A stretch of DNA of 64,000 nt from Shigella phage ESh27. Made by a program: the position numbers and the translations under genes. Below the pieces are notes generated by a model. That model was not told where the DNA came from, did no database searches, and was given only the letters and a program-made list of their open reading frames with translations. How positions within the stretch are numbered: the stretch's first letter is position 1; every line of letters starts with the position of its first letter. Of this stretch, positions 7,477 to 53,891 are shown one piece after another. The stretch lies in sequence record ON528737. One strand, 5' to 3'.

Positions 7477-9210
7477 TTACCCAATATCAATACGAGACCC
7501 GTCAACAGTATATTGTCCTGAAGCTATTGAGCTCATTGTAGTCATTGTCTCCGACCAATTACCAGCAACAGTCATATCAACATTACCATTAACCGTCCAT
7601 TTAACATTACCATTGACAGTATAGTCATGATTCCCTTCGACCTGAGTTTTAGCATCACCTTTAACAAGAATATCTGCATTTCCGTCAACAACTATTTTGA
7701 TATTACCCTTAACGTAAAGAGTTCCATCACCTTCAACAGTTTTAGTTTGGTTACCGCGAATAAAGATTGTGTCATTGCCGTCTATTTGATGGAGGCGGTC
7801 TGCCATGTTATAATATATTTCGTTAGCACCAACGTTAACAAGTTTATCACCAGAAACCAGGAAATTCCCATCACCGTTAGTGATGTCAAAAAGGTCTTCT
7901 ACAGTTTTACGAGTGCGACGCCCGGATGGAGAAACTTCCTCATACGACCCTGTTGGATGAACTAAGCGATAACGTTCGTTACCTGGAGTGTCGTCAAACT
8001 CTTGGATATGACCGCTTTCTGTTTCCATAGCATGAACATACGGGTATTCACCACGATAACTTGATTCAGGTTCTTTAAAAAGGATACGCGAATCTAATGG
8101 AACAGGAGGACCAGCCGGGTCTTCTGGATCGGTATTTCTAGTAACTAAATCGGCACCGACTCCTGGTGAAGGTGGTGTTTTAACAGGAACGCCATATGAT
8201 TCCATGTTACCAGTTAAAATAATTGTTGTTACACGTGAAGCACGCCCTTTAGTCTGTTGGAACCATAACGAATCGCGCCCGGATTTGTATGCGGTTTTCC
8301 AATCGCCTGTGGCCATTGCTTTAAGCATAGTATTGAATTTTGCTACACCGCCAACGCCCATTTGGAAGCACATGTTTTCTAATGCCATTTGGCGAGACCT
8401 ATTCATTTTGGCATAAACAGGTCCTACTTTAGAATTAGAACGAATGTCTTTCTGCATCTTAGCAAGGTCCTTCTCAAATAGAGCTGTTGCTTCTTCTAAT
8501 GTAATAGTCCCGGGATTTCCTGTTACTTCACGCCCTACTTGATCTGATAACAATTTATTAATTCGAGTCATGTCTCGGGTCTTTTCCATTACGATAAGGT
8601 GTCCAATACCTACTGTAGGATACCCTAGATGGTCCCAATAAACTTTATCACGAAGACCTTCATCACGACGTAACATTTCTGTTATTGTAAAATTAGGGTC
8701 ATCATCTTCTGGAATATTTGCTAAATCTGTATCATCTGGGTTTATACCATAATCTAAGTTGTTATCTTGAATTACGTTAGAATTCGAATAATAACCAGCT
8801 TCACCACCTTGGTTTAATACGTTCGTATCATTACCTAAACGTCGTGGATATTGACCTGTAGGGTCGGAAAAACCTTCGAGTCTATTAGGCTTTTCACGTA
8901 CTATTCCGCCATATGTACCAAGTACAATACCGTTTGTTTTCCATTTGTCTAAGAAATGACCATATACTCGAGTTCCTTCGACAGGGCCTGTAACAGAACC
9001 ACCAATACCCGACATTGATGCCGATGTAATAGGTTGAATAACAGTCATCCATGGAAGTTTTTCGGTAGGAATACCTTGTACGTCACCTTGTGCTCTCTGC
9101 GCAGGATGAAGTCCTACGACTCGTACTCGAACACGCCCTTGTTTCAATGGGTCCATTCTGTCCTCGACAACACCCACGAACCAATTAAGGCTACTGCTAA
9201 TCATTTCCAT
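7477..9210 (-). CDS. 5: baseplate hub / tail-associated lysozyme gp5
   Basis: 577 aa; internal T4-lysozyme-like segment (YWDHLGYPTVGIGHL...); C-terminal VxGxxxVxG beta-helix repeats. Confidence 0.9.
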   Translation of the reverse strand: MEMISSSLNWFVGVVEDRMDPLKQGRVRVRVVGLHPAQRAQGDVQGIPTEKLPWMTVIQPITSASMSGIGGSVTGPVEGTRVYGHFLDKWKTNGIVLGTYGGIVREKPNRLEGFSDPTGQYPRRLGNDTNVLNQGGEAGYYSNSNVIQDNNLDYGINPDDTDLANIPEDDDPNFTITEMLRRDEGLRDKVYWDHLGYPTVGIGHLIVMEKTRDMTRINKLLSDQVGREVTGNPGTITLEEATALFEKDLAKMQKDIRSNSKVGPVYAKMNRSRQMALENMCFQMGVGGVAKFNTMLKAMATGDWKTAYKSGRDSLWFQQTKGRASRVTTIILTGNMESYGVPVKTPPSPGVGADLVTRNTDPEDPAGPPVPLDSRILFKEPESSYRGEYPYVHAMETESGHIQEFDDTPGNERYRLVHPTGSYEEVSPSGRRTRKTVEDLFDITNGDGNFLVSGDKLVNVGANEIYYNMADRLHQIDGNDTIFIRGNQTKTVEGDGTLYVKGNIKIVVDGNADILVKGDAKTQVEGNHDYTVNGNVKWTVNGNVDMTVAGNWSETMTTMSSIASGQYTVDGSRIDIG

Positions 9211-16487: not shown

Positions 16488-16649
16488 GAAGCCGGGTCGC
16501 TACCGGCAAGTCGTCGGACTGATGTTCCCTGAGTAAGGACTGGTCTTAATAAATCTTTACTATTTGTTAATATCCCCTTACATCACAGCAGAAACGGCGC
16601 ACAGAATTATCGATTCGAGGAAATATCTTTGCCGTAAGCCGAGTAGCGT

Positions 16650-16750
16650 TTTTGACGGAACGTTCGGATATGGTCGAGATATGGCCTTTTAAAAATATTG
16701 AGTAGCGTCAACTGCTTAATAACCGGGTTCGAATCCCGGCGTTTCGTACA
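16650..16750 (+). ncRNA. candidate tRNA-like or stable RNA (unresolved)
   Basis: Canonical T-arm CCGGG-TTCGAAT-CCCGG at 16723-16739 in a 270-nt ORF-free stretch; could not fold a full cloverleaf by hand. Confidence 0.2.
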
Positions 16751-16799
16751 AACACTTGCCTTAGCAGGTGGAACCCCGACAAGGTTGCCTCAAGGCTTA

Positions 16800-16826
16800 G
16801 CCCCTTCCGAAAGGTTGGGGCTTTTT
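16800..16826 (+). terminator. rho-independent terminator (repeat copy 1)
   Basis: GCCCCTTCCGAAAGGTTGGGGC hairpin plus T5; identical element at 32378 and 33001. Confidence 0.6.
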
Positions 16827-16916
16827 AGTTTGAATCACTCAGAGAATGCTGTTACTGATAATACCAAAGTAATAAATAATTAATAACAAACCGATAAATT
16901 ATTTCAAGGATTTTAA

Positions 16917-23732: not shown

Positions 23733-24223
23733 TGATTAACAAAACATATTGGTCTAATATAGACGATGGCAACGAAGGTATTTCGTACTATTCAGTGGAT
23801 TGGACAGGATGTCCATCCTACTTAGTGAAACGTATTTGTCAAGAATTTAAAATCGACCAGCCAGCAGGTATTATCGTGAACAGATACATTAATGGATATC
23901 AACCTATCGATGAAGTAATAAGAACAACTCAAGCCGAGCTTGAAAAGTTTTTCAATAAGTGCCAATGGATAACAGGATGGATTATATTTGTACCGTCGGT
24001 ATGGTTTTTTAGTACTAAAGTAAGTGCCTTTGCCATACCAGATATTATCGCTATATTATTAGCATCTACTATCGTAAGTATTATTGGTGGTATTATTGGT
24101 GGAGGTACTATAGGCATCATTATTAATCTTGTTAAAAGTAGTTTACAGGAACGTAAAGACAAGATAAAGGCCAAGAATAATGAAGTTGAACGTTTTATTA
24201 CCGAATGCAGGAATTTGAGATGA
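23732..24223 (+). CDS. membrane protein with glycine-zipper segment
   Basis: IIGGIIGGGTIGIII hydrophobic Gly-rich helix. Confidence 0.6.
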   Translation: MINKTYWSNIDDGNEGISYYSVDWTGCPSYLVKRICQEFKIDQPAGIIVNRYINGYQPIDEVIRTTQAELEKFFNKCQWITGWIIFVPSVWFFSTKVSAFAIPDIIAILLASTIVSIIGGIIGGGTIGIIINLVKSSLQERKDKIKAKNNEVERFITECRNLR

Positions 24224-24456
24224 GTATAGCAATTTACATTAAATCAGAATCGTGTGATAGTTATCTGTACACATATGATAAAGATGTGTCAGAAGAAAAA
24301 ATCAAAGACGATCTTAATATGGACCTTGATTTGTTCCGTCCTATTGCAGATTACAAACTTGCGGTCTCTAATAGTGAAAGTCCATCTAAAGAAACACGCA
24401 TTGAAGAATTTATGTCCGAATTAATGGCCAAATCATGGGACCGAGATGATGAGTAA
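24220..24456 (+). CDS. hypothetical acidic protein
   Basis: ATGA start/stop overlap with upstream gene. Confidence 0.5.
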   Translation: MSIAIYIKSESCDSYLYTYDKDVSEEKIKDDLNMDLDLFRPIADYKLAVSNSESPSKETRIEEFMSELMAKSWDRDDE

Positions 24457-24904
24457 GAAAAATAAAGTGAAAGAGCTATCAGCCGGTATTATTTTCCTTA
24501 CCGAAGATAAAGAGTTATTCATGGGCCGTGTAACTGGTTCTCGTCCTAAAGGTTCTTTAGCTCATCGGTGGGATATTCCTAAAGGCCGTGTCGAACCCGG
24601 CGAATCTCCTATCGAAGCCGCTATTCGTGAATGCGAAGAAGAAACTGGGTTTACACAATATGACCCTGCCTTCCTGAAAGACCTAGGTGAACATCATTAC
24701 TCAGACAATAAGAATATTCATCTGTTCCTATATACCATCCCTGTAGAGCACGAGCAATTCAGAAACAGTGTTTGTAATTCCTATCATACATTCCCGGACG
24801 GACGACAGATTCCTGAATTTGATGCATTCGCTTTAATTAAACCTTCTCAATGGGAATATGTGATGGGCAAATCATTATATAAGGTGCTCACTACCATCCT
24901 ATAA
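24446..24904 (+). CDS. nudE: Nudix hydrolase NudE
   Basis: Nudix box GRVEPGESPIEAAIRECEEETG; 152 aa; adjacent to gene e. Confidence 0.85.
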   Translation: MMSKKNKVKELSAGIIFLTEDKELFMGRVTGSRPKGSLAHRWDIPKGRVEPGESPIEAAIRECEEETGFTQYDPAFLKDLGEHHYSDNKNIHLFLYTIPVEHEQFRNSVCNSYHTFPDGRQIPEFDAFALIKPSQWEYVMGKSLYKVLTTIL

Positions 24905-24910
24905 GTAATA

Positions 24911-24938
24911 AATACCTCCTATAAACGTGGGAGGTATT
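24911..24938 (+). promoter_or_regulatory. hairpin pairing the lysozyme SD with an upstream arm; late-promoter-like TATAAACG in the loop
   Basis: AATACCTCC (24911-19) / GGAGGTATT (24930-38) inverted repeat. Confidence 0.5.
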
Positions 24939-25427
24939 ATGAATATATTTGAAATGCTTCGTAATGACGAAGGTCTTAGACTGACTTTATACAAAGACAC
25001 CGAAGGCTTTTGGACGATTGGCATAGGCCATTTGGTAACAAAGGACCCGTCTTTAGCCGTAGCTAAAGCTGAACTTGATAGAATGATCGGTCGTAAATGC
25101 AACGGTACAATTACCCTTGATGAGGCTGAAAAGCTATTTAATGAAGATGTTGATAAAGCCGTTCGCGGAATCTTGGGTAATGCTAAACTTAAACCGGTAT
25201 ATGATTCTTTAGATGCAGTTCGTCGATGTGCATTGGTCAATATGGTCTTCCAAATGGGTGTAGCAGGCGTTGCTGGTTTTACTAATTCTCTTCGTATGCT
25301 TCAACAGAAACGTTGGGACGAAGCGGCAGTAAATCTAGCCCAATCTAAATGGTATCGTCAGACACCTAATCGCGCGAAACGCGTAATCTCAACATTTAAA
25401 ACAGGAACTTGGAAAGCGTATATATGA
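24939..25427 (+). CDS. e: endolysin (T4 lysozyme)
   Basis: MNIFEMLR...DEAEKLFN...[22 protein letters not shown] matches T4 lysozyme. Confidence 0.96.
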
Positions 25428-25705
25428 AAACATATAGTGAATTTTTATCAGAATCTATTCTTAACGAAGCTACTGACACATTTGCAACTAAGCTAGGTGC
25501 AGCTTTGGTTGAAGCTGAAAGTCTATTAGCACGTATTTCTGAACTTGCTAGTAAGATAGATACTCGCAAATTTGAGCGCACCAGTGATATCGTTAAGCTT
25601 GAAGCACTGTTGCGTATGTGCGATAAACCAGAAGAAATCGCTAAGAACGGCTCGCTGATGAAACAACGTCTTGAAAAATATATTTCAGGCGCTTCAGAAA
25701 AATAG
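25424..25705 (+). CDS. internal-protein-like protein with CTS
   Basis: N-terminus [11 protein letters not shown]; ATGA overlap with gene e stop. Confidence 0.7.
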
Positions 25706-25706
25706 T

Positions 25707-25760
25707 GTTTACTTCCTCCAAGGACTTTGATACTATACATTCATCAACTACTTGGAGGAA
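25707..25760 (+). promoter_or_regulatory. early promoter inside a 10-bp inverted repeat that includes the denV SD
   Basis: GTTTAC 25707-12, TACTAT 25731-36; arms TTCCTCCAAG (25714-23) / CTTGGAGGAA (25751-60). Confidence 0.55.
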
Positions 25761-25763
25761 ATT

Positions 25764-26177
25764 ATGACTCGTATCAATTTAACACTTGTTTCTGAACTGA
25801 CTGACCAACATCTTATGGCTGAGTATCGTGAATTACCACGCGTATTTGGTGCAGTCCGTAAACATGTTCAAAACGGTAAACGTGTAAAGGATTTTAAAAT
25901 CTCTCCGACATTTATCTTAGGCACGGGTCACGTAACATTCTTTTACGACAAACTCGAATTTTTACGTTTACGTCAAATCGAGCTAATCACTGAATGCTTG
26001 AAACGTGGTTTCAAAATCAAGGACACGACAGTCCAGGATATTTCCGACATCCCTGCCGAATTTCGTAATAATTATGTCCCGTCCGAAGCGTCCATTGCGA
26101 TAAGTCAAGCACGCTTAGATGAAAAAATTGCTCAACGTCCGACTTGGTACAAATACTATGGTAAATCAATTTACTAA
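25764..26177 (+). CDS. denV: endonuclease V (pyrimidine dimer DNA glycosylase)
   Basis: [34 protein letters not shown]... matches T4 DenV. Confidence 0.96.
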
Positions 26178-26183
26178 GGAAAA

Positions 26184-26444
26184 ATGAAAATGTATCAAGA
26201 ATTTATCACTGAAGCAGATGCCAAAGGTCCTAAATTTAAAGTTAAAGCTTTCATTGGTGATGCGGAAGACTTTGGCTCGTTAAAACGTAATGGGTATTCT
26301 TTCTTAGGTGGCGATGGTAAAGAAATCAACACCTATGCAAAACGTAGTGAAATTGCTTATGTTGTAGCAAGCCCTAAAGTAGATGCTGACGATATTGGAT
26401 ACGATTTTAACAACTTCGGAATTATTTCTGGCGGTAAAGCTTAA
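26184..26444 (+). CDS. internal-protein-like protein with CTS
   Basis: N-terminus MKMYQEFITEA; 86 aa. Confidence 0.65.
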   Translation: MKMYQEFITEADAKGPKFKVKAFIGDAEDFGSLKRNGYSFLGGDGKEINTYAKRSEIAYVVASPKVDADDIGYDFNNFGIISGGKA

Positions 26445-26446
26445 AT

Positions 26447-26478
26447 TGTTTACGCTTAAGTATTAATATGGTATAATT
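26447..26478 (+). promoter_or_regulatory. early promoter (GTTTAC / TATAAT)
   Basis: Followed by the CTATCAAAACAA leader motif. Confidence 0.45.
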
Positions 26479-26507
26479 ACTCTATCAAAACAAACAAGGA
26501 AACAAAA

Positions 26508-27086
26508 ATGAAAACATATAAAGAATTTATCGCCGAGGCCTTTGCAGGAAAAGTCCAAGGCATTAATAAGGACGAGTGGAATTATCGTGGCGGAAACGGC
26601 TTTGACCCTAAAACTGCTCCTATTGAACGGTACTTAGCTACAAAGGCTTCCGACTTTAAAGCCTTCGCTTGGGAAGGACTTCGCTGGCGTAACGATCTAA
26701 ATATTGAAGTTGATGGTCTTAAATTTGCTCATATTGAAGATGTTGTTGCTAGTAACTTAGACGCAGCTTTTGTTAAAGCCGACAGTGACCTTCGTCGCTG
26801 GAATTTAAAACTGTTCTCTAAACAAAAAGGCCCGAAGTTTGTGCCTAAAGCAGGTAAATGGGTCATTGATAATAAATTGGCTAAAGCTGTCAACTACGCT
26901 GGTCTTGAATTTGCCAAGCATAAATCATCATGGAAAGGTCTTGACGCAATGGCTTTCCGTAAAGAATTTGCCGATGTTATGGCTAAAGGCGGCTTTAAGG
27001 CAGAAATAGATACCTCTAAAGGTACGTTTAAAGACGCTAATGTTCAGTACGCTTACGCCGTTGCTAATGCAGCCCGTGGTAATTAA
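26508..27086 (+). CDS. internal-protein-like protein with CTS (IPIII-sized)
   Basis: N-terminus MKTYKEFIAEA; 192 aa. Confidence 0.7.
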   Translation: MKTYKEFIAEAFAGKVQGINKDEWNYRGGNGFDPKTAPIERYLATKASDFKAFAWEGLRWRNDLNIEVDGLKFAHIEDVVASNLDAAFVKADSDLRRWNLKLFSKQKGPKFVPKAGKWVIDNKLAKAVNYAGLEFAKHKSSWKGLDAMAFRKEFADVMAKGGFKAEIDTSKGTFKDANVQYAYAVANAARGN

Positions 27087-27088
27087 TA

Positions 27089-27110
27089 AGGCCTATACTT
27101 AGGCCTATTT
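27089..27110 (+). terminator. terminator-like hairpin
   Basis: AGGCCT-ATACTT-AGGCCT then ATTT, directly after the stop codon. Confidence 0.4.
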
Positions 27111-27264
27111 ACATTCAACTAAAATGGGAACAACCTGGACCTCATTATTCTATGAGGGATTCCCGCCAACCTGTAATAAGGTCGAGCCCAAGTGCGGTAA
27201 TGGGTAAATACAGAAACGGACAAGTCATGCGCCATGGAATGGCCCAAACCTTAAGAGAAATAAT

Positions 27265-27804
27265 ATGAGAACATTTTTAACTGGACCTTATCTATCCCTG
27301 ATGAATGCTTTTACACACCATTCTGATGCTAGAGTAGAAGAAATTTGTAAGAACGGTTATACCCCACCATTTGAAGATGTACTCAAGCAGTACTGTACAC
27401 TTCGTTTAGACGGCGGCAGACAATCAGGTAAATCAATTGCTGTGACTAACTTTGCTGCTAATTGGCTGTATGATGGTGGAACAGTTATTGTTCTTTCTAA
27501 TACTTCAGCTTATGCTAAAATTTCTGCTGGCAACATTGAAAAAGAATTTTCGCGTTATTCTAGCGACGATATTCGATTCCGTTTATTTACTGATTCTGTT
27601 CGTAGTTTTATTGGCAATGAAGGTTCTAAATTCCGTGGATTAACGCTTTCTCGTATTCTGTATATAATTGACGAGCCTATTAAAGCTCCTGATATGGATA
27701 AGATTTACAATGTCCATATTAAAACAGTCCAACACTGCTGTAAAAGCAAATATTGCAACGGCGGTATTGCTCGTCCTCAATTTTTTGTGATTGGAATGCA
27801 ATGA
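27265..27804 (+). CDS. small P-loop NTPase
   Basis: Walker A GGRQSGKS and Walker B ILYIIDE. Confidence 0.6.
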   Translation: MRTFLTGPYLSLMNAFTHHSDARVEEICKNGYTPPFEDVLKQYCTLRLDGGRQSGKSIAVTNFAANWLYDGGTVIVLSNTSAYAKISAGNIEKEFSRYSSDDIRFRLFTDSVRSFIGNEGSKFRGLTLSRILYIIDEPIKAPDMDKIYNVHIKTVQHCCKSKYCNGGIARPQFFVIGMQ

Positions 27805-28109
27805 TGACCACTATTGAAGTTTTTGAGTATTGTTATAACAGCCCAGTATGCAATAAAAGGGCTCTTGTAGAAAATTACGAGATTTACCATTTTAAACCTA
27901 AACGATATCGTTTGACTAAAGGTCCGTTCGCAGGGCAGCAGGTTCTTTGTACTGCTCCTAATGCACGGTTGATGACTAGTATTCCACATTTCAAAATGGA
28001 ATTTATTGATGGGCCATTTAAGGGATTAATCACTCAAAGTTTAATGGCGTTTAATTCCGACCCATTTTTGATTAAAGAAAAAACTTGGATAAATTTATTT
28101 TCTAATTGA
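27801..28109 (+). CDS. hypothetical protein
   Basis: ATGA overlap with upstream gene. Confidence 0.5.
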   Translation: MMTTIEVFEYCYNSPVCNKRALVENYEIYHFKPKRYRLTKGPFAGQQVLCTAPNARLMTSIPHFKMEFIDGPFKGLITQSLMAFNSDPFLIKEKTWINLFSN

Positions 28110-28115
28110 GGTTAT

Positions 28116-28478
28116 ATGAAAGCATATCAAATTCTTGAAGGTGCACATAAAGGCACTATTTATTTTGAAGACGGTACTCAAGCCCGGATTATTGTCTCTA
28201 AGACTTTTAAAGAAGACGCTATTGTAGACTCAGAAATTTTCTACGGTTTGAATGCCCGTGAAATTGAAATTGAACATCAACCTAAAGTTAAAATTGAAGG
28301 TGGTCAACACCTGAACGTTAACGTTCTGCGTCGTGAAACTCTGGAAGATGCAGTTAAGCATCCGGAAAAATATCCGCAGCTGACCATCCGTGTATCCGGT
28401 TATGCAGTTCGCTTTAACTCTCTGACTCCGGAACAGCAGCGCGACGTTATCGCTCGTACCTTTACTGAGAGTCTATAA
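28116..28478 (+). CDS. autonomous glycyl radical cofactor (GrcA/YfiD-like)
   Basis: C-terminus ...[60 protein letters not shown] with the RVSGY glycyl radical motif. Confidence 0.85.
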
Positions 28479-28702
28479 TGGCTAAATTGATTATAGAAGG
28501 GTCTGAAGATGTTTTAAAATGTTTTGCCGCCTGGTTTAGTTGCTCAGGCGAGCAATCATTCATTGAAGCATTTAGAATGGGTGATATTACTGGAAACTAT
28601 CCGACAACTGATATCACTGTACGTGGATACGGTATTAATGAGCCTATCCAATTGGTCGAATATGACCTTGCCACCGATGAGGAAATTCCTTATGTCGATT
28701 GA
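28478..28702 (+). CDS. hypothetical protein
   Basis: 74-aa ORF; overlapping alternative-frame ORF 28524-28958 not preferred. Confidence 0.45.
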   Translation: MAKLIIEGSEDVLKCFAAWFSCSGEQSFIEAFRMGDITGNYPTTDITVRGYGINEPIQLVEYDLATDEEIPYVD

Positions 28703-42276: not shown

Positions 42277-42629
42277 CATATTCATTAAATCTTAAAGATT
42301 TCCAAGATGTATACGAAGTTTGTGCCAATGAACTTGGTCCTGATGCTCCAACTATTATTGAAGTTTTAAATGTGCTCCCTTCATCATTAGCTTACGAAGC
42401 CAAATCATGGGGTTGGAACGACACTGTCGTTCGTGATGACCTTTACGTCCTGATGAACGATATGATGGTTAAAAAGGCAGAACCGGTTGCACCAATGGTT
42501 ACCATTACCGTTGAAGAATATAATCGCCTGCAAGCCATTGAAGAGCTTCTGTGGAACATTGAATGTGACCTTCCGTCAGGGCTAGAATCCTGGATTGATT
42601 ATGAAGAGCTCAATAAACTCCGGGGTTAA
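42273..42629 (+). CDS. hypothetical protein
   Basis: 118-aa ORF, ATGA overlap. Confidence 0.6.
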   Translation: MTYSLNLKDFQDVYEVCANELGPDAPTIIEVLNVLPSSLAYEAKSWGWNDTVVRDDLYVLMNDMMVKKAEPVAPMVTITVEEYNRLQAIEELLWNIECDLPSGLESWIDYEELNKLRG

Positions 42630-42757
42630 ACCATGGTATTCGGCTCGATGGGAGACTGTCGAGCCAGACGTCGAAACGGTTTACAACGGCGAAGAACCAT
42701 GTTATGATGAACCTTCAATAAATGAATTAATTGATATGGAAATGGGAAGAGATTATT

Positions 42758-42967: not shown

Positions 42968-43441
42968 ATGTTATTATCAGGCGCAAAATATAAAGAAGAA
43001 AAACAAAAATTTTATGATGCACAGAACGGTAAGTGTCCTATTTGCCGCCGTGAATTAGACTCTGATGTTCAAGGTAACCATCTTGACCACGACCATGAAT
43101 TAAACGGGCCAAAAGCCGGTAGAGTTCGTGGATTACTCTGTAATCTGTGCAACGCAGCAGAAGGTCAAATGAAGCATAAGTTCAACCGTTCCGGTTTGAA
43201 AGGTCAAAACGTTGATTACTTAGAATGGCTTGAAGCTCTTCTTGCTTATTTGAAACAAGATTATTCTGATAATAATATCCATCCTAATTTTGTTCCGGAT
43301 AAAACTAAAGAGTTCTCAAGACTAGGTAAAGAGGAAATGATGACCGAGATGCTTCAAAGAGGATTTGAATATAATGAATCTGATACTAAAACACAATTAA
43401 TAGCTTCATTCAAAAAGCAGCTTAGAAAGAGTTTAAAATGA
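42968..43441 (+). CDS. 49: endonuclease VII (Holliday junction resolvase)
   Basis: 157 aa; ...CPICRREL...HLDHDHELNGPKAGRVRGLLCNLCNAAEG... matches T4 gp49. Confidence 0.92.
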   Translation: MLLSGAKYKEEKQKFYDAQNGKCPICRRELDSDVQGNHLDHDHELNGPKAGRVRGLLCNLCNAAEGQMKHKFNRSGLKGQNVDYLEWLEALLAYLKQDYSDNNIHPNFVPDKTKEFSRLGKEEMMTEMLQRGFEYNESDTKTQLIASFKKQLRKSLK

Positions 43442-45255
43442 AAATTGAAAAAGAAATTGAAGGATTAATTTATAAAACTAATAAAGACCTTTTAAACGAG
43501 AATGCTAATAAAGATTCTCGTGTTTTTCCAACTCAACGGGACCTTATGGCTGGTATTGTGTCTAAGCACATTGCCAAAAATATGGTCCCGTCTTTTATTA
43601 TGAATGCGCATGAAAGTGGAATTATCCACATGCATGATATTGATTATTCTCCTGCTCTTCCATTTACTAATTGCTGTTTAGTCGATTTAAAGGGGATGCT
43701 TGAGAATGGTTTTAAATTAGGCAATGCTCAAATCGAAACGCCTAAATCAATTGGTGTTGCTACTGCAATTATGGCACAAATTACTGCACAAGTTGCTTCC
43801 CATCAATACGGCGGAACGACTTTTGCTAATGTAGATAAAGTACTTTCTCCTTATGTTAAACGCACCTATGCAAAACATATTGAGGACGCAGAAAAATGGC
43901 AAATCGCTGATGCGTTGAATTATGCTCAATCTAAAACAGAAAAAGACGTATACGATGCATTCCAAGCTTATGAATATGAAGTAAATACTCTCTTTAGTTC
44001 AAATGGACAAACGCCTTTTGTAACAATTACATTTGGTATGGGAACCGATTGGACTGAACGAATGATTCAGAAAGCAATTCTGAAAAATCGGATTAAAGGT
44101 CTTGGACGTGATGGGATAACTCCTATTTTCCCTAAACTTGTTATGTTCATTGAAGAAGGTGTTAATCTTTATAAAGATGATCCAAATTATGATATTAAAC
44201 AACTTGCGTTAGAATGTGCAAGCAAAAGAATGTATCCTGACATCATTTCGGTTAAGAATAATAAAGCTATTACTGGTTCTTCAGTTCCAGTTTCTCCAAT
44301 GGGTTGCCGTAGTTTCTTGAGTGTGTGGAAAGATTCGACCGGTAATGAAATTCTTGATGGACGTAATAATCTAGGTGTTGTAACGCTGAATCTTCCTCGC
44401 ATCGCGTTAGATTCTTATATTGGAACACAGTTCAATGAACAGAAATTTGTTGAGCTATTTAATGAACGAATGGATCTGTGCTTTGAAGCCTTGATGTGCA
44501 GAATTAGTTCTTTAAAGGGTGTTAAAGCAACTGTAGCTCCTATTCTTTACCAAGAAGGTGCATTCGGTGTTCGTCTTAAACCTGATGATGATATAATTGA
44601 GTTATTTAAAAACGGTAGAAGTTCAGTGTCTTTAGGATACATTGGTATTCATGAATTGAATATTCTTGTTAGTCGTGATATTGGACAAGAAATTTTAACT
44701 AAAATGAATGCTCATCTTAAACAGTGGACTGAAAGAACTGGATTTGCTTTTAGTTTATATTCGACTCCTGCTGAAAACCTTTGTTATCGCTTCTGTAAAC
44801 TTGATACAGAAAAATACGGAAGTGTAAAAGATGTTACCGATAAAGGCTGGTACACTAATAGTTTCCACGTTTCAGTAGAAGAAAATATTACTCCGTTTGA
44901 AAAGATTTCTCGTGAAGCGCCATATCATTTCATTGCGACAGGTGGTCACATTTCTTATGTTGAACTTCCTGATATGAAAAATAACCTAAAAGGTCTTGAG
45001 GCTGTCTGGGATTATGCTGCACAACATTTAGATTATTTTGGTGTTAATATGCCAGTGGATAAATGTTTTACATGCGGAAGTACTCATGAAATGACTCCTA
45101 CTGAAAACGGATTTGTTTGTTCAGTTTGCGGAGAAACTGATCCTAAAAAGATGAACACTATAAGAAGGACGTGCGGTTATTTGGGAAATCCGAACGAACG
45201 CGGATTTAATCTCGGTAAAAATAAAGAAATCATGCATAGGGTTAAACACCAATGA
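43438..45255 (+). CDS. nrdD: anaerobic ribonucleoside-triphosphate reductase
   Basis: 605 aa continuous ORF; C-terminal zinc ribbon and glycyl radical motif RRTCGY. Confidence 0.92.
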   Translation: MKIEKEIEGLIYKTNKDLLNENANKDSRVFPTQRDLMAGIVSKHIAKNMVPSFIMNAHESGIIHMHDIDYSPALPFTNCCLVDLKGMLENGFKLGNAQIETPKSIGVATAIMAQITAQVASHQYGGTTFANVDKVLSPYVKRTYAKHIEDAEKWQIADALNYAQSKTEKDVYDAFQAYEYEVNTLFSSNGQTPFVTITFGMGTDWTERMIQKAILKNRIKGLGRDGITPIFPKLVMFIEEGVNLYKDDPNYDIKQLALECASKRMYPDIISVKNNKAITGSSVPVSPMGCRSFLSVWKDSTGNEILDGRNNLGVVTLNLPRIALDSYIGTQFNEQKFVELFNERMDLCFEALMCRISSLKGVKATVAPILYQEGAFGVRLKPDDDIIELFKNGRSSVSLGYIGIHELNILVSRDIGQEILTKMNAHLKQWTERTGFAFSLYSTPAENLCYRFCKLDTEKYGSVKDVTDKGWYTNSFHVSVEENITPFEKISREAPYHFIATGGHISYVELPDMKNNLKGLEAVWDYAAQHLDYFGVNMPVDKCFTCGSTHEMTPTENGFVCSVCGETDPKKMNTIRRTCGYLGNPNERGFNLGKNKEIMHRVKHQ

Positions 45256-45722
45256 ATTATGATAGATTTTATCCTTGCGATTTTGTGAATGGCCCTGGTT
45301 GCAGGGTCGTTCTTTTCGTTACAGGTTGTTTGCATAAATGCGAAGGGTGTTATAATAAATCAACATGGAATGCTAGAAATGGTATTCCATTCACCGGTGA
45401 AACACTAGAACAATTAATTGAATGTTTGAATAATGATTATATAGAAGGATTAACTATAACCGGAGGTGACCCTCTCTATCCTGACAACCGAGATGTTATT
45501 CATTCTGTGGTTCAAACTATTAAAAATATTTATCCAAATAAAAGCATTTGGTTGTGGACAGGATATAAGTTTGAAGATATTAAACAACTAGAAATGCTTA
45601 AATATGTTGATGTTATTATTGATGGGAAGTATGAGAAAAATCTTCCGACCAAAAAGCTGTGGCGAGGATCAGATAATCAGCGACTTTGGTCAAATACCAA
45701 TGGGGTGTGGAAACATGATTAA
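45252..45722 (+). CDS. nrdG: anaerobic RNR activating enzyme (radical SAM)
   Basis: CDFVNGPGCRVVLFVTGCLHKCEGCYN cysteine cluster; 156 aa. Confidence 0.9.
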   Translation: MNYDRFYPCDFVNGPGCRVVLFVTGCLHKCEGCYNKSTWNARNGIPFTGETLEQLIECLNNDYIEGLTITGGDPLYPDNRDVIHSVVQTIKNIYPNKSIWLWTGYKFEDIKQLEMLKYVDVIIDGKYEKNLPTKKLWRGSDNQRLWSNTNGVWKHD

Positions 45723-52206: not shown

Positions 52207-53891
52207 AATCATTTAAATTAAATCGTGTTCGTTATCAAAACATCATGTCGGTAGGTGGGAATCCTATCGATATCCAATTAGATAAAGTCCAAAAGACATT
52301 AATCACTGGTAAAAATGGCGGTGGTAAATCTACGATGTTAGAAGCCATTACTTTCGGACTTTTCGGTAAACCATTTCGTGATGTTAAGAAAGGACAAATC
52401 ATTAATAGCACGAACAAGAAAGAGCTCTTAGTTGAGCTTTGGATGGAATTCGATGATAAAAAATACTTCATTAAACGTGGCCAAAAGCCCAATATTTTCG
52501 AAATCTCCGTTAACGGTGTTCGTCTTGATGAATCTGCCAGCAGTCGCGACTTCCAAGAAGAATTTGAACGTAGCATCGGAATGTCATACGCGTCTTTTAA
52601 ACAGATCGTTGTGCTTGGGACGGCAGGGTATACCCCTTTCATGGCTCTTAGCACCCCTGCTCGTAGAAAACTTGTCGAAGACCTTTTAGAAGTCGGCACA
52701 CTTGCTGAAATGGATAAAATCAATAAGTCTCAAGTTCGCGAACTTAATTCCCAGGGACAAGTTCTCGATGCCAAGAAAGATGGTATTATCCAACAAATTA
52801 AGATTTATAACGAGAATATCGAACGCCAAAAGAAATTATCTGGCGATAATGTAGCACGTCTACAGAATATGTATGACGACCTAGCCAAAGAAGCTCGTTC
52901 ATTAAAAGCAGAAATTGAAGAAGCTAATGAGCGTCTACTTAATATCGTTCTTGACGAAGACCCTACTGAGGCATTCAACAAGATCGGACAAGAAGCATTC
53001 TTGATTAAATCTAAAATCGACTCATATAACAAAGTTATTAAGATGTATCATGATGGCGGCACGTGTCCTACTTGCGCATCACAATTGCACCAGGGTGACC
53101 CTATTGTCTCTAAGATTACCGATAAGCTTCATGAATGTAATCACTCATTCGAGCAACTTACCTGTCACAGAGATAATCTGAGTGTCCTAGTGGACGAATA
53201 TAGAGCTAACGTTAAGACTAAACAGGACCTTGCATCTGATATTCGTACAAAGAAACAAACAATGATTGCCACTATTGATAAAGCTAAGAAAGTTAAAGCT
53301 GCAATAGAGCAAGCCTCGGCTGAATTTATCGACCATGCCGATGAGATAGCTTTGCTTCAAAAAGAACTTGATAAAATCATTAAAACAAAATCGGATATCG
53401 TTCTTGAAAAATACCATCGTGGTATTATCACAGATATGTTAAAAGATTCTGGTATTAAAGGTGCTATCATTAAAAAATATGTGCCTCTGTTCAACAAGCA
53501 GATTAACCATTATCTTAAAATCATGGAAGCTGATTATGTGTTTTCTATTGACGAAGAATTCAATGAATCTATAAAATCACGCGGACGTGAAGATTTTAGT
53601 TATGCTTCATTTAGTCAAGGTGAAAAAGCACGTATCGATATCGCATTGTTGTTTACATGGCGAGATATTGCTGAAAAGGTTTCTGGTGTTAGAATCAATA
53701 CATTAATTATGGACGAAGTCATGGATTCCGCGACTGATTCTGAAGGTATTAAAGCTATTTCAACAATTCTTAACTCTCTAACCGATGCAAACGTGTTTAT
53801 AATTAGTCACAGAGACCATGACCCACAAGCTTATGGACAACATCTTCAGATGAGCAAAGTTGGACGATTTACTGTAATGACTGTTTCATAA
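52203..53891 (+). CDS. 46: recombination endonuclease subunit gp46 (Rad50-like ATPase)
   Basis: 562 aa; Walker A GKNGGGKST, central coiled coil with CPTC zinc hook, C-terminal LIMDEV. Confidence 0.9.
   Translation: MKSFKLNRVRYQNIMSVGGNPIDIQLDKVQKTLITGKNGGGKSTMLEAITFGLFGKPFRDVKKGQIINSTNKKELLVELWMEFDDKKYFIKRGQKPNIFEISVNGVRLDESASSRDFQEEFERSIGMSYASFKQIVVLGTAGYTPFMALSTPARRKLVEDLLEVGTLAEMDKINKSQVRELNSQGQVLDAKKDGIIQQIKIYNENIERQKKLSGDNVARLQNMYDDLAKEARSLKAEIEEANERLLNIVLDEDPTEAFNKIGQEAFLIKSKIDSYNKVIKMYHDGGTCPTCASQLHQGDPIVSKITDKLHECNHSFEQLTCHRDNLSVLVDEYRANVKTKQDLASDIRTKKQTMIATIDKAKKVKAAIEQASAEFIDHADEIALLQKELDKIIKTKSDIVLEKYHRGIITDMLKDSGIKGAIIKKYVPLFNKQINHYLKIMEADYVFSIDEEFNESIKSRGREDFSYASFSQGEKARIDIALLFTWRDIAEKVSGVRINTLIMDEVMDSATDSEGIKAISTILNSLTDANVFIISHRDHDPQAYGQHLQMSKVGRFTVMTVS

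Follow-up and report, generated by a model that had tools for sequence, protein, structure and literature searches.

A 175-nt tract of the T-even phage gene vs.6 is identical to Escherichia coli grcA and probably reflects repeated gene conversion from the host

Results

The vs.6 gene of Shigella phage ESh27

The DNA analysed here is a stretch of 64,000 nt from Shigella phage ESh27 (sequence record ON528737), referred to below as the window. The surrounding genome is that of a T-even phage (Straboviridae, Tevenvirinae). An open reading frame (ORF) within it is the ortholog of T4 vs.6, whose product Y06I is a phage counterpart of GrcA (YfiD), the autonomous glycyl radical cofactor of E. coli. 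The gene combines a phage-type 5' portion with a 175-nt tract identical to chromosomal grcA of E. coli, and this tract has probably been replaced from the host repeatedly by gene conversion. The gene and its biochemical function are already known through the T4 ortholog. The window adds nothing new on function, and it is the evolutionary behaviour of the gene that is of interest. The gene contains the following features.

28116..28478, + strand: vs.6 (Y06I) ortholog, autonomous glycyl radical cofactor (phage GrcA), 120 amino acids, ORF from ATG to TAA
28116..28293, + strand: phage-type 5' portion, codons 1-59, G+C 0.34, G+C at third codon positions (GC3) 0.22; diverged homolog of the GrcA N-region
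28294..28468, + strand: tract of host origin (175 nt) without a mismatch to chromosomal grcA of E. coli; encodes residues 61-117, with the entire glycyl-radical domain of the pyruvate formate-lyase type
28389..28403, + strand: RVSGY glycyl-radical motif, residues 92-96, from motif search and GrcA/PflB alignment
28398-28400, + strand: Gly95, predicted radical site, aligned with GrcA Gly102 and PflB Gly734
28469..28478, + strand: phage-specific gene end, GAG AGT CTA TAA, differing from E. coli at three third codon positions, all synonymous

The identity of the gene is well supported. A blastn search of 50,697 phage records returned full-length vs.6 matches in 865. The window allele is of the Mosigvirus type, with 98.9% nucleotide identity to Mosigvirus vB_EcoM_G53, unlike the T4 allele (93.9%), which is annotated in the T4 record as "Vs.6 conserved hypothetical protein". 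The ESh27 and T4 proteins both have 120 residues and are identical over the C-terminal 60, and the two genes share the same neighbours and the same 5' junction with host sequence; the eight amino acid changes between them all fall in the N-terminal 60 residues. Vs.6 matches PHROG 1209 over residues 1-120 (8.9e-63), Pfam Gly_radical over residues 59-101 or beyond (E = 2.1e-18) and the E. coli GrcA structure 6OWR over residues 21-120 (phmmer, E = 1.8e-42). Residues 57-120 align to residues 696-759 of PflB, within its C-terminal domain (E = 2.6e-26), and residues 61-120 are 100% identical to GrcA residues 68-127, RVSGY included, in agreement with an earlier note on this DNA that had called the gene GrcA-like. 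The GrcA equivalog model TIGR04365 is the best-scoring family, and its score of 160.1 bits is just below the curated cut-off of 170 because the N-terminal half is diverged. By the strict NCBI rule, Vs.6 would be a close relative of GrcA without automatic equivalog status. Despite the biochemical work of 2001, PHROG 1209 is labelled "unknown function", and in many GenBank records the gene is named "hypothetical protein" or, wrongly, "pyruvate formate-lyase" or "formate acetyltransferase".

Vs.6 is a small (about 14 kDa) stand-alone glycyl-radical protein with its own ribosome-binding site and stop codon, and its homology to GrcA extends beyond the domain shared with pyruvate formate-lyase (PFL) into the N-region. 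It shares this small stand-alone architecture with E. coli GrcA (YfiD; 6OWR, TIGR04365, IPR011140), along with residues 61-120 and the 175 nt of identical DNA. It differs from E. coli GrcA in being seven residues shorter and in having an AT-rich, strongly diverged N-terminal half. The genomic context also differs: vs.6 lies in a phage operon with overlapping genes, whereas E. coli grcA lies between ung and eamB. The likeness to PflB (PDB 1H16, 2PFL) is confined to the C-terminal domain with the RVSGY loop (residues 696-759), which is the part replaced by the spare part according to PMC8683613; Vs.6 is a separate 14-kDa protein, whereas PflB is an enzyme of 85 kDa.

A host-identical tract in the 3' half of vs.6

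The nucleotide BLAST that the earlier note proposed as a check gave a clear result. Positions 28294-28468 match E. coli grcA at 175/175 nt, in an exact run bounded by mismatches at 28293 and 28469. Chromosomal grcA was matched over the 3' two-thirds of vs.6 in all 5,426 complete E. coli genomes (blastn), and the tract is at least 99% identical in 5,156 of them. In the codon alignment, phage and E. coli agree from GAA GGT GGT (Glu61) to the fourth-last codon. The remainder of the window, searched as 1-25000, 24000-28290, 28490-53489 and 39001-64000, gave zero megablast matches to the same 5,426 genomes. The vs.6 tract is the sole host-identical DNA in the 64 kb.

The donor and the direction of transfer can be read from comparisons among bacteria. 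Over a 173-nt core, the identity of the tract to grcA is 100% for E. coli, 98.8% for another Escherichia species, 92.5% for Citrobacter, 86-88% for Klebsiella and 83% for Salmonella and Yersinia. Identity to pflB DNA is only about 80%, so that grcA rather than pflB is the donor. E. coli and Salmonella grcA are 84.6% identical in the 5' part and 84.2% in the 3' part, and the G+C content of E. coli grcA is genome-like. The equal divergence of the two halves points to a vertically inherited host gene, and thus to transfer from host to phage.

Base composition agrees with this picture, and codon usage does so in part. The last 183 nt of vs.6 have a G+C content of 0.486, compared with 0.34 in the 5' half and 0.371 in the window; only 0.07% of all 183-nt segments reach 0.486. 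Only five other places contain 183-nt stretches with G+C of at least 0.486 (8969-9182, 16625-16828, 24520-24706, 42524-42707 and 52514-52697). None of the five had a megablast match in the E. coli genomes, and they are therefore not host-identical patches. The earlier note had based its case on host-like CTG, CGT and CCG codons together with raised G+C. CTG (5/6 Leu codons in the tract, 11% in phage genes), CCG (3/3 Pro codons, 16% in phage) and the G+C content were borne out. CGT does not discriminate, being the preferred Arg codon of the phage itself (52%), and the general codon score is ordinary: under a likelihood score based on phage codon usage, the 3' half ranks at the 20th percentile among windows of 60 codons. 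The GC3 of the tract is 0.42 (z = 1.6 above the phage background). With this percentile and a z of only 1.6, codon usage was dropped as primary evidence. The unremarkable score is explained by an overlap in codon preference: many codons ending in A or T are preferred both in highly expressed genes of E. coli and in T-even phages. It is DNA identity, rather than codon bias, that is decisive.

Age of the tract

Comparison of the window with T4 reveals how abruptly divergence is interrupted at vs.6. Nucleotide identity is 66-93% in the flanks, 100% over 28286-28465 and about 77% within the next 90 nt. Synonymous change was expressed as pS, the proportion of synonymous sites changed, from codon-based counts between the window phage and T4:

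Flanking genes denV, vs.8, vs.7, vs.5, vs.4, vs.3, regB, vs.1 and vs: pS 0.42-0.73, pooled 0.61
vs.6 codons 1-60: pS 0.28
vs.6 codons 61-117: no change among 43.3 synonymous sites
Final three codons of vs.6: three differences, all synonymous

Even at a rate of 0.28, the lowest in the neighbourhood, 43 sites would all stay unchanged with a probability of only about 7e-7. Given this lack of change despite near-saturated flanks, the tract appears to be much younger than the split between Mosigvirus and Tequatrovirus, or else to have been kept refreshed.

The phage-like 5' half

The 5' half of vs.6 has a different history. Its DNA upstream of about 28248 is not alignable to E. coli grcA, and the 60 nt preceding the tract junction are only about 50% identical. 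The N-terminal halves of Vs.6 and GrcA alone are 37% identical over 41 amino acids (BLASTP, single comparison, E = 5e-7), and related peptides can be recognised in the phage (ARIIVSK-FKEDAIV...REIEIE) and the host (ARCIVAK-FAEDEVV...REVPVE). Nonsynonymous divergence (dN) from T4 in this portion is 0.06, with the pS of 0.28 given above. The whole gene is thus a grcA homolog in which the 5' part is old and phage-adapted and the 3' part is young. A chimeric gene with a phage-like 5' half, as the earlier note described it, is borne out by the G+C of 0.34, the lack of a DNA alignment to grcA and the 37% protein identity. Its further suggestion of recent acquisition holds for the tract, with 0/43 synonymous changes from T4; the gene itself would be old, with its 3' domain overwritten.

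The tract in other phages of E. coli

The tract is widespread. The E. coli type is carried at 95-100% identity by 643 phage records, comprising phages of Escherichia, Shigella and Yersinia and a few of Salmonella. Only two records fall at 90-95% identity to it, and 107 fall below 90%, most of them with a Klebsiella-type tract. At the 5' junction, the phage sequence GTT AAA ATT / GAA GGT stands against GTT CGC GTT / GAA GGT in the host. Among 14 E. coli-phage copies examined, all 20 distinct tract variants are synonymous, indicating that the residues of the glycyl-radical domain are held exactly at the host sequence by purifying selection. An AT-ward drift was sought in these copies as a sign of age; AT-to-GC changes numbered 10 and GC-to-AT changes 8, a near balance that says nothing about age. 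Seventeen of the 20 variants are seen in some bacterium, against 11 expected; because the tract hardly varies within E. coli, this excess does not tell the competing histories apart. The tract of Yersinia phage PYps32T (L096) is 99.4% identical to E. coli and 83% identical to Yersinia grcA, and other Tequatroviruses named for Yersinia or Salmonella likewise bear an E. coli-type tract. This suggests that the recent natural host of these phages isolated on Yersinia pseudotuberculosis or Salmonella was E. coli.

Klebsiella and Raoultella phages carry the tract of their own hosts

A separate comparison was made with seven Jiaodavirus-type phages of Klebsiella and Raoultella, a small sample. The bacterial grcA set comprised the 80 closest protein matches to GrcA of E. 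coli and lacked K. pneumoniae; grcA of K. variicola and the K. pneumoniae complex was added by protein search, look-up of the encoding contigs and a metagenome scan. Metagenomic contigs L186-L190 have flanks 86-96% identical to a K. variicola genome and are therefore bacterial chromosome. In the Jiaodavirus-type phages, the tract has a G+C content of 0.53-0.58, compared with 0.36 in the 5' halves, and encodes the Klebsiella-type LLDAVEH, not LEDAVKH. It is up to 97.7% identical to a Klebsiella allele, and phage PMBT63 has a 143-nt exact run to that of L189. The Klebsiella allele is found in 105 phage records at 95% identity or more and in 34 more at 90-95%, essentially in phages of Klebsiella and Raoultella.

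Within this group, the tracts differ from each other more than the rest of the gene does. Identity between phages is 88-98% in the tracts and 93-100% in the 5' halves. Indeed, PMBT63 and KMI11 are identical over the 5' 180 nt and have five differences in the tract. Of 30 segregating phage variants, 18 have the same base as a polymorphism among nine Klebsiella and Raoultella alleles; by chance, 15% would match when every base is permitted (P = 3e-8) and 39% when changes are restricted to transitions (P = 0.016). Raoultella phage Ra_O-2 has five single-nucleotide polymorphisms (SNPs) in common with the divergent allele L191, and three of these are also present in the metagenome-assembled genome L041, the sole Raoultella-labelled sequence in the allele set. 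In KMI11 the tract encodes Ser in place of Pro (LTSEQQ), as does the K. variicola allele. Since sister genera bear the tract of their own host, and the tract within one genus is a mosaic of host alleles, repeated transfer from host to phage appears to be required. Two bacterial records with grcA are unusual. A grcA copy is present on "plasmid unnamed4" of Klebsiella sp. WOUb02, a replicon of 275 kb (L023). A record titled Vagococcus sp. WN89Y (L032), named for a Gram-positive genus, contains grcA of enterobacterial type whose protein is 91% identical to that of E. coli; this record is probably contaminated or mislabelled.

A second glycyl-radical protein in the window

The ESh27 window encodes two glycyl-radical proteins of different types, Vs.6 and the ribonucleotide reductase NrdD, the latter with its activase.

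42968-43441: endonuclease VII gene, just upstream of NrdD
43438-45255: NrdD, 605 amino acids, Pfam NRDD 4.4e-171, loop RRTCGYLG
45252-45722: NrdG activase

A vs.6 homolog is also present in the Klebsiella jumbo phage RaK2 (L094, 354-716), where it is AT-rich throughout, without a host-like tract, and in a context unlike that of the T-even phages.

Discussion

Proposed function and origin of the tract

Spare-part proteins such as GrcA restore PFL that has been damaged by oxygen. According to the summary of Wagner et al. 2001 (pmid 11444864) in PMC8683613, YfiD (GrcA) and T4 Y06I receive a glycyl radical from PFL activase, form a complex with oxygen-cleaved PFL and restore its activity; when PMC8683613 was written, no spare-part proteins other than these two had been validated. 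Rescue of an oxygen-damaged host glycyl radical enzyme, which the earlier note had proposed, is thus a published activity of the T4 ortholog. The radical role of glycines of the GrcA Gly102 and PflB Gly734 type is likewise described (PMC8683613). The same spare-part activity may be expected of ESh27 Vs.6 by analogy with its T4 ortholog. In an infected cell, oxygen would cleave host PflB at the radical glycine, and PflA would install a glycyl radical on the small phage protein. The radical-bearing Vs.6 would then dock on truncated PflB in place of the lost C-terminal domain and bring activity back. In this way the output of fermentative acetyl-CoA, ATP and formate could be kept up in a cell without gene expression of its own.

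For the origin of the tract the following account is proposed. T-even phages replicate through recombination, and T4 geneticists routinely rescue markers from cloned homologous DNA that contains cytosine. The phage lineage would have possessed a long-standing, diverged grcA homolog, and the 3' part, the PFL-type glycyl-radical domain, would have been replaced repeatedly from grcA of the current host by gene conversion during infection. Once vs.6 had good homology to grcA, fragments of the degrading host chromosome could convert it. The limits of the tract would be the limits of homology, because conversion begins and ends only in homologous sequence. The 5' limit is the start of the conserved EGGQHLN domain; the 3' limit lies 7-20 nt short of the stop codon, where vs.6 overlaps the start of vs.5 and host DNA past the stop is unrelated. 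After a change of host, selection for fit to PflB and for recognition by PflA would favour convertants, and it would purge non-synonymous drift.

We consider it likely that vs.6 has a GrcA-type function and that its glycyl-radical domain has undergone repeated host-to-phage gene conversion, with purifying selection on the protein. The evidence also leans towards a more specific proposal, in which the 3' domain evolves in concert with host grcA. Host chromosomal DNA would recombine into virulent T-even genomes in nature so frequently that about 170 nt are kept identical to the host and rewritten after shifts among E. coli, the K. pneumoniae complex and Raoultella.

Alternative explanations

A simpler history would be a single recent capture of the 3' segment of E. 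coli grcA that spread by phage-phage recombination in Tequatrovirus and Mosigvirus, with a separate single capture in Klebsiella phages. The 5' breakpoint common to all 14 E. coli-phage copies would be expected of such a capture, as would the private synonymous variants in phage copies, and the pS of 0.28 in the 5' half, lower than in the neighbouring genes, makes phage-phage exchange near vs.6 plausible. However, spread of this kind would need phage-phage breaks within 10 nt of both ends of the tract, where divergence resumes at once. The Klebsiella-phage tracts, moreover, are more diverse than the 5' halves next to them, form a mosaic of host alleles and share SNPs with them, one an amino acid variant, all of which points to several independent host donors. 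A single capture is therefore unlikely, and repeated conversion remains the preferred reading. It is far less credible that the tract converged on host-optimal codons or on a feature at the mRNA level without any DNA transfer. Its 57 residues are under strong purifying selection and grcA is a codon-biased host gene, yet E. coli, Citrobacter and Salmonella, whose codon preferences are similar, encode a peptide that is the same or nearly so and differ at 7-17% of tract positions. The general codon score of the tract is ordinary for the phage, Klebsiella phages follow Klebsiella alleles SNP by SNP, and convergence cannot yield 175/175 bases with sharp edges. The comparison between species effectively refutes it. 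Phage preparations often contain host DNA, and host reads in a phage assembly could give a chimeric consensus. The chance that this produced the tract is negligible: the same tract and junctions recur in the 643 independent records, which include T4, T2, the RB-series and recent isolates, the junctions lie within one intact ORF, and the last 10 nt and the vs.5 start are phage-specific.

With regard to function, Vs.6 could instead be a spare part for the phage's own NrdD, as the earlier note also suggested, or be activated by phage NrdG, rather than serve host PflB. NrdD, too, is cleaved by oxygen at its radical glycine. The window itself has genes for both NrdD and NrdG, 15 kb downstream of vs.6, the RaK2 homolog lies between nrdD and nrdG, and a role in nucleotide metabolism was speculated upon by Nolan et al. 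2006 (PMC1524935). Against this, Vs.6 has no significant similarity to the NrdD of the window (BLASTP E = 4.3), and its loop is of the PFL type, IRVSGYAV, where NrdD has RRTCGYLG. The Vs.6 domain equals host GrcA residue for residue and aligns to PflB 696-759 with the E value of 2.6e-26 given above, and according to PMC8683613 it is with PFL and its activating enzyme (PFL-AE) that the T4 ortholog worked. Rescue of NrdD has found no support in these comparisons and is very improbable, and host PflB is the favoured partner.

Several observations weigh against repeated and continuing conversion. The junction shared by the 14 copies fits a single capture followed by spread, as well as a junction fixed where homology ends. 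Some E. coli-phage copies are up to 4% different from the host tract, indicating that refreshment is not overwhelming. For the shared polymorphism in the Klebsiella phages, the conservative null gives only modest significance (P = 0.016), and the taxonomy of the metagenomic Klebsiella-like alleles depends on flank similarity to one K. variicola genome. No record in the phage collection exceeds 90% identity to the tract of Salmonella grcA. A fresh host tract was likewise not found in the E. coli phage RB49, Karamvirus, Aeromonas phages, T5-like phages or RaK2, in which identity to host alleles is 65-80% and the G+C step is 0.00-0.05; Slopekvirus and Pseudotevenvirus are intermediate (82-85%, 0.05-0.11). 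The process that yields host tracts appears to be restricted to some lineages, and conversion presumably needs enough pre-existing identity to start. That conversion is ongoing is a conclusion drawn from population patterns, and we infer, rather than observe, its present-day frequency and whether it is adaptive or a neutral by-product. No measured physiological benefit to the phage was found in the literature searched.

Comparison with known systems and significance

Host-derived metabolic genes with patchy composition are known from other phages. In cyanophages, patchy G+C in psbA and psbD has been attributed to intragenic recombination between host and phage (Zeidner et al. 2005; Sullivan et al. 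2006, PMC1484495). Like psbA and psbD, vs.6 is a host-derived metabolic gene of T4-like phages in which G+C is patchy along the gene; it has a segment of host composition with sharp junctions and, in the small Klebsiella-phage sample, signs of multiple exchanges. Unlike in psbA and psbD, the tract is 100% host-identical, has fixed ends that coincide with one protein domain and apparently moves one way, from host to phage. The pattern in vs.6 also differs in occurring in virulent coliphages and in tracking the host species across phage genera. Host-tracking conversion of vs.6 was not found in the literature searched; an earlier remark on DNA identity between T4 and yfiD is possible (Wagner 2001, Miller 2003). 

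Such behaviour would be unexpected in T-even phages. Their DNA is chemically modified, and they destroy the DNA of the host. Virulent T-evens are usually thought to acquire host sequence only rarely, yet a letter-perfect, domain-sized tract is present in hundreds of isolates. If conversion is recurrent, the tract could provide a quantifiable handle on the rate of recombination between lytic phages and host chromosomes in nature. It could serve as a marker of recent host use, which may aid host prediction for therapeutic T4-like phages, and it would illustrate cleanly how selection can hold a phage-encoded part exactly compatible with the host enzymes PflB and PflA. If concerted evolution is true, the tract would be a built-in record of the host species recently used, and a natural example of a plug-compatible part copied from each host.

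Additional observations on the locus

The order vs.8-vs.7-vs.6-vs.5 is common to the window and T4, and the neighbours of vs.6 match the vs.8, vs.7 and vs.5 PHROGs. The features next to vs.6 are as follows.

27804..28109: vs.7 ORF, upstream neighbour
28108..28111, + strand: Shine-Dalgarno sequence GAGG, 4 nt 5' of the vs.6 ATG, overlapping the vs.7 TGA stop
28478..28702: vs.5 ORF, downstream neighbour; the vs.6 TAA stop overlaps the vs.5 ATG (TAATG)

A promoter scan around vs.6 gave none above the shuffled expectation, and terminator-like sites in the region numbered 6 against 1.7 expected. Two ORFs resembling internal head proteins (MKMYQEFI... and MKTYKEFI...) lie at 26184-27086, between denV and vs.8, unlike T4 ipIII and ipII, which sit upstream of denV. 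Directly after the second of these (ORF 26508-27086), a perfect 7-bp G+C-rich hairpin, AGGCCTA...TAGGCCT, occupies 27089-27106 and is terminator-like on both strands. The IMG/VR contig L099 is 93-100% identical to the window over about 26650-27085 and is T4-like in vs.6 and downstream, which makes it a local phage-phage mosaic.

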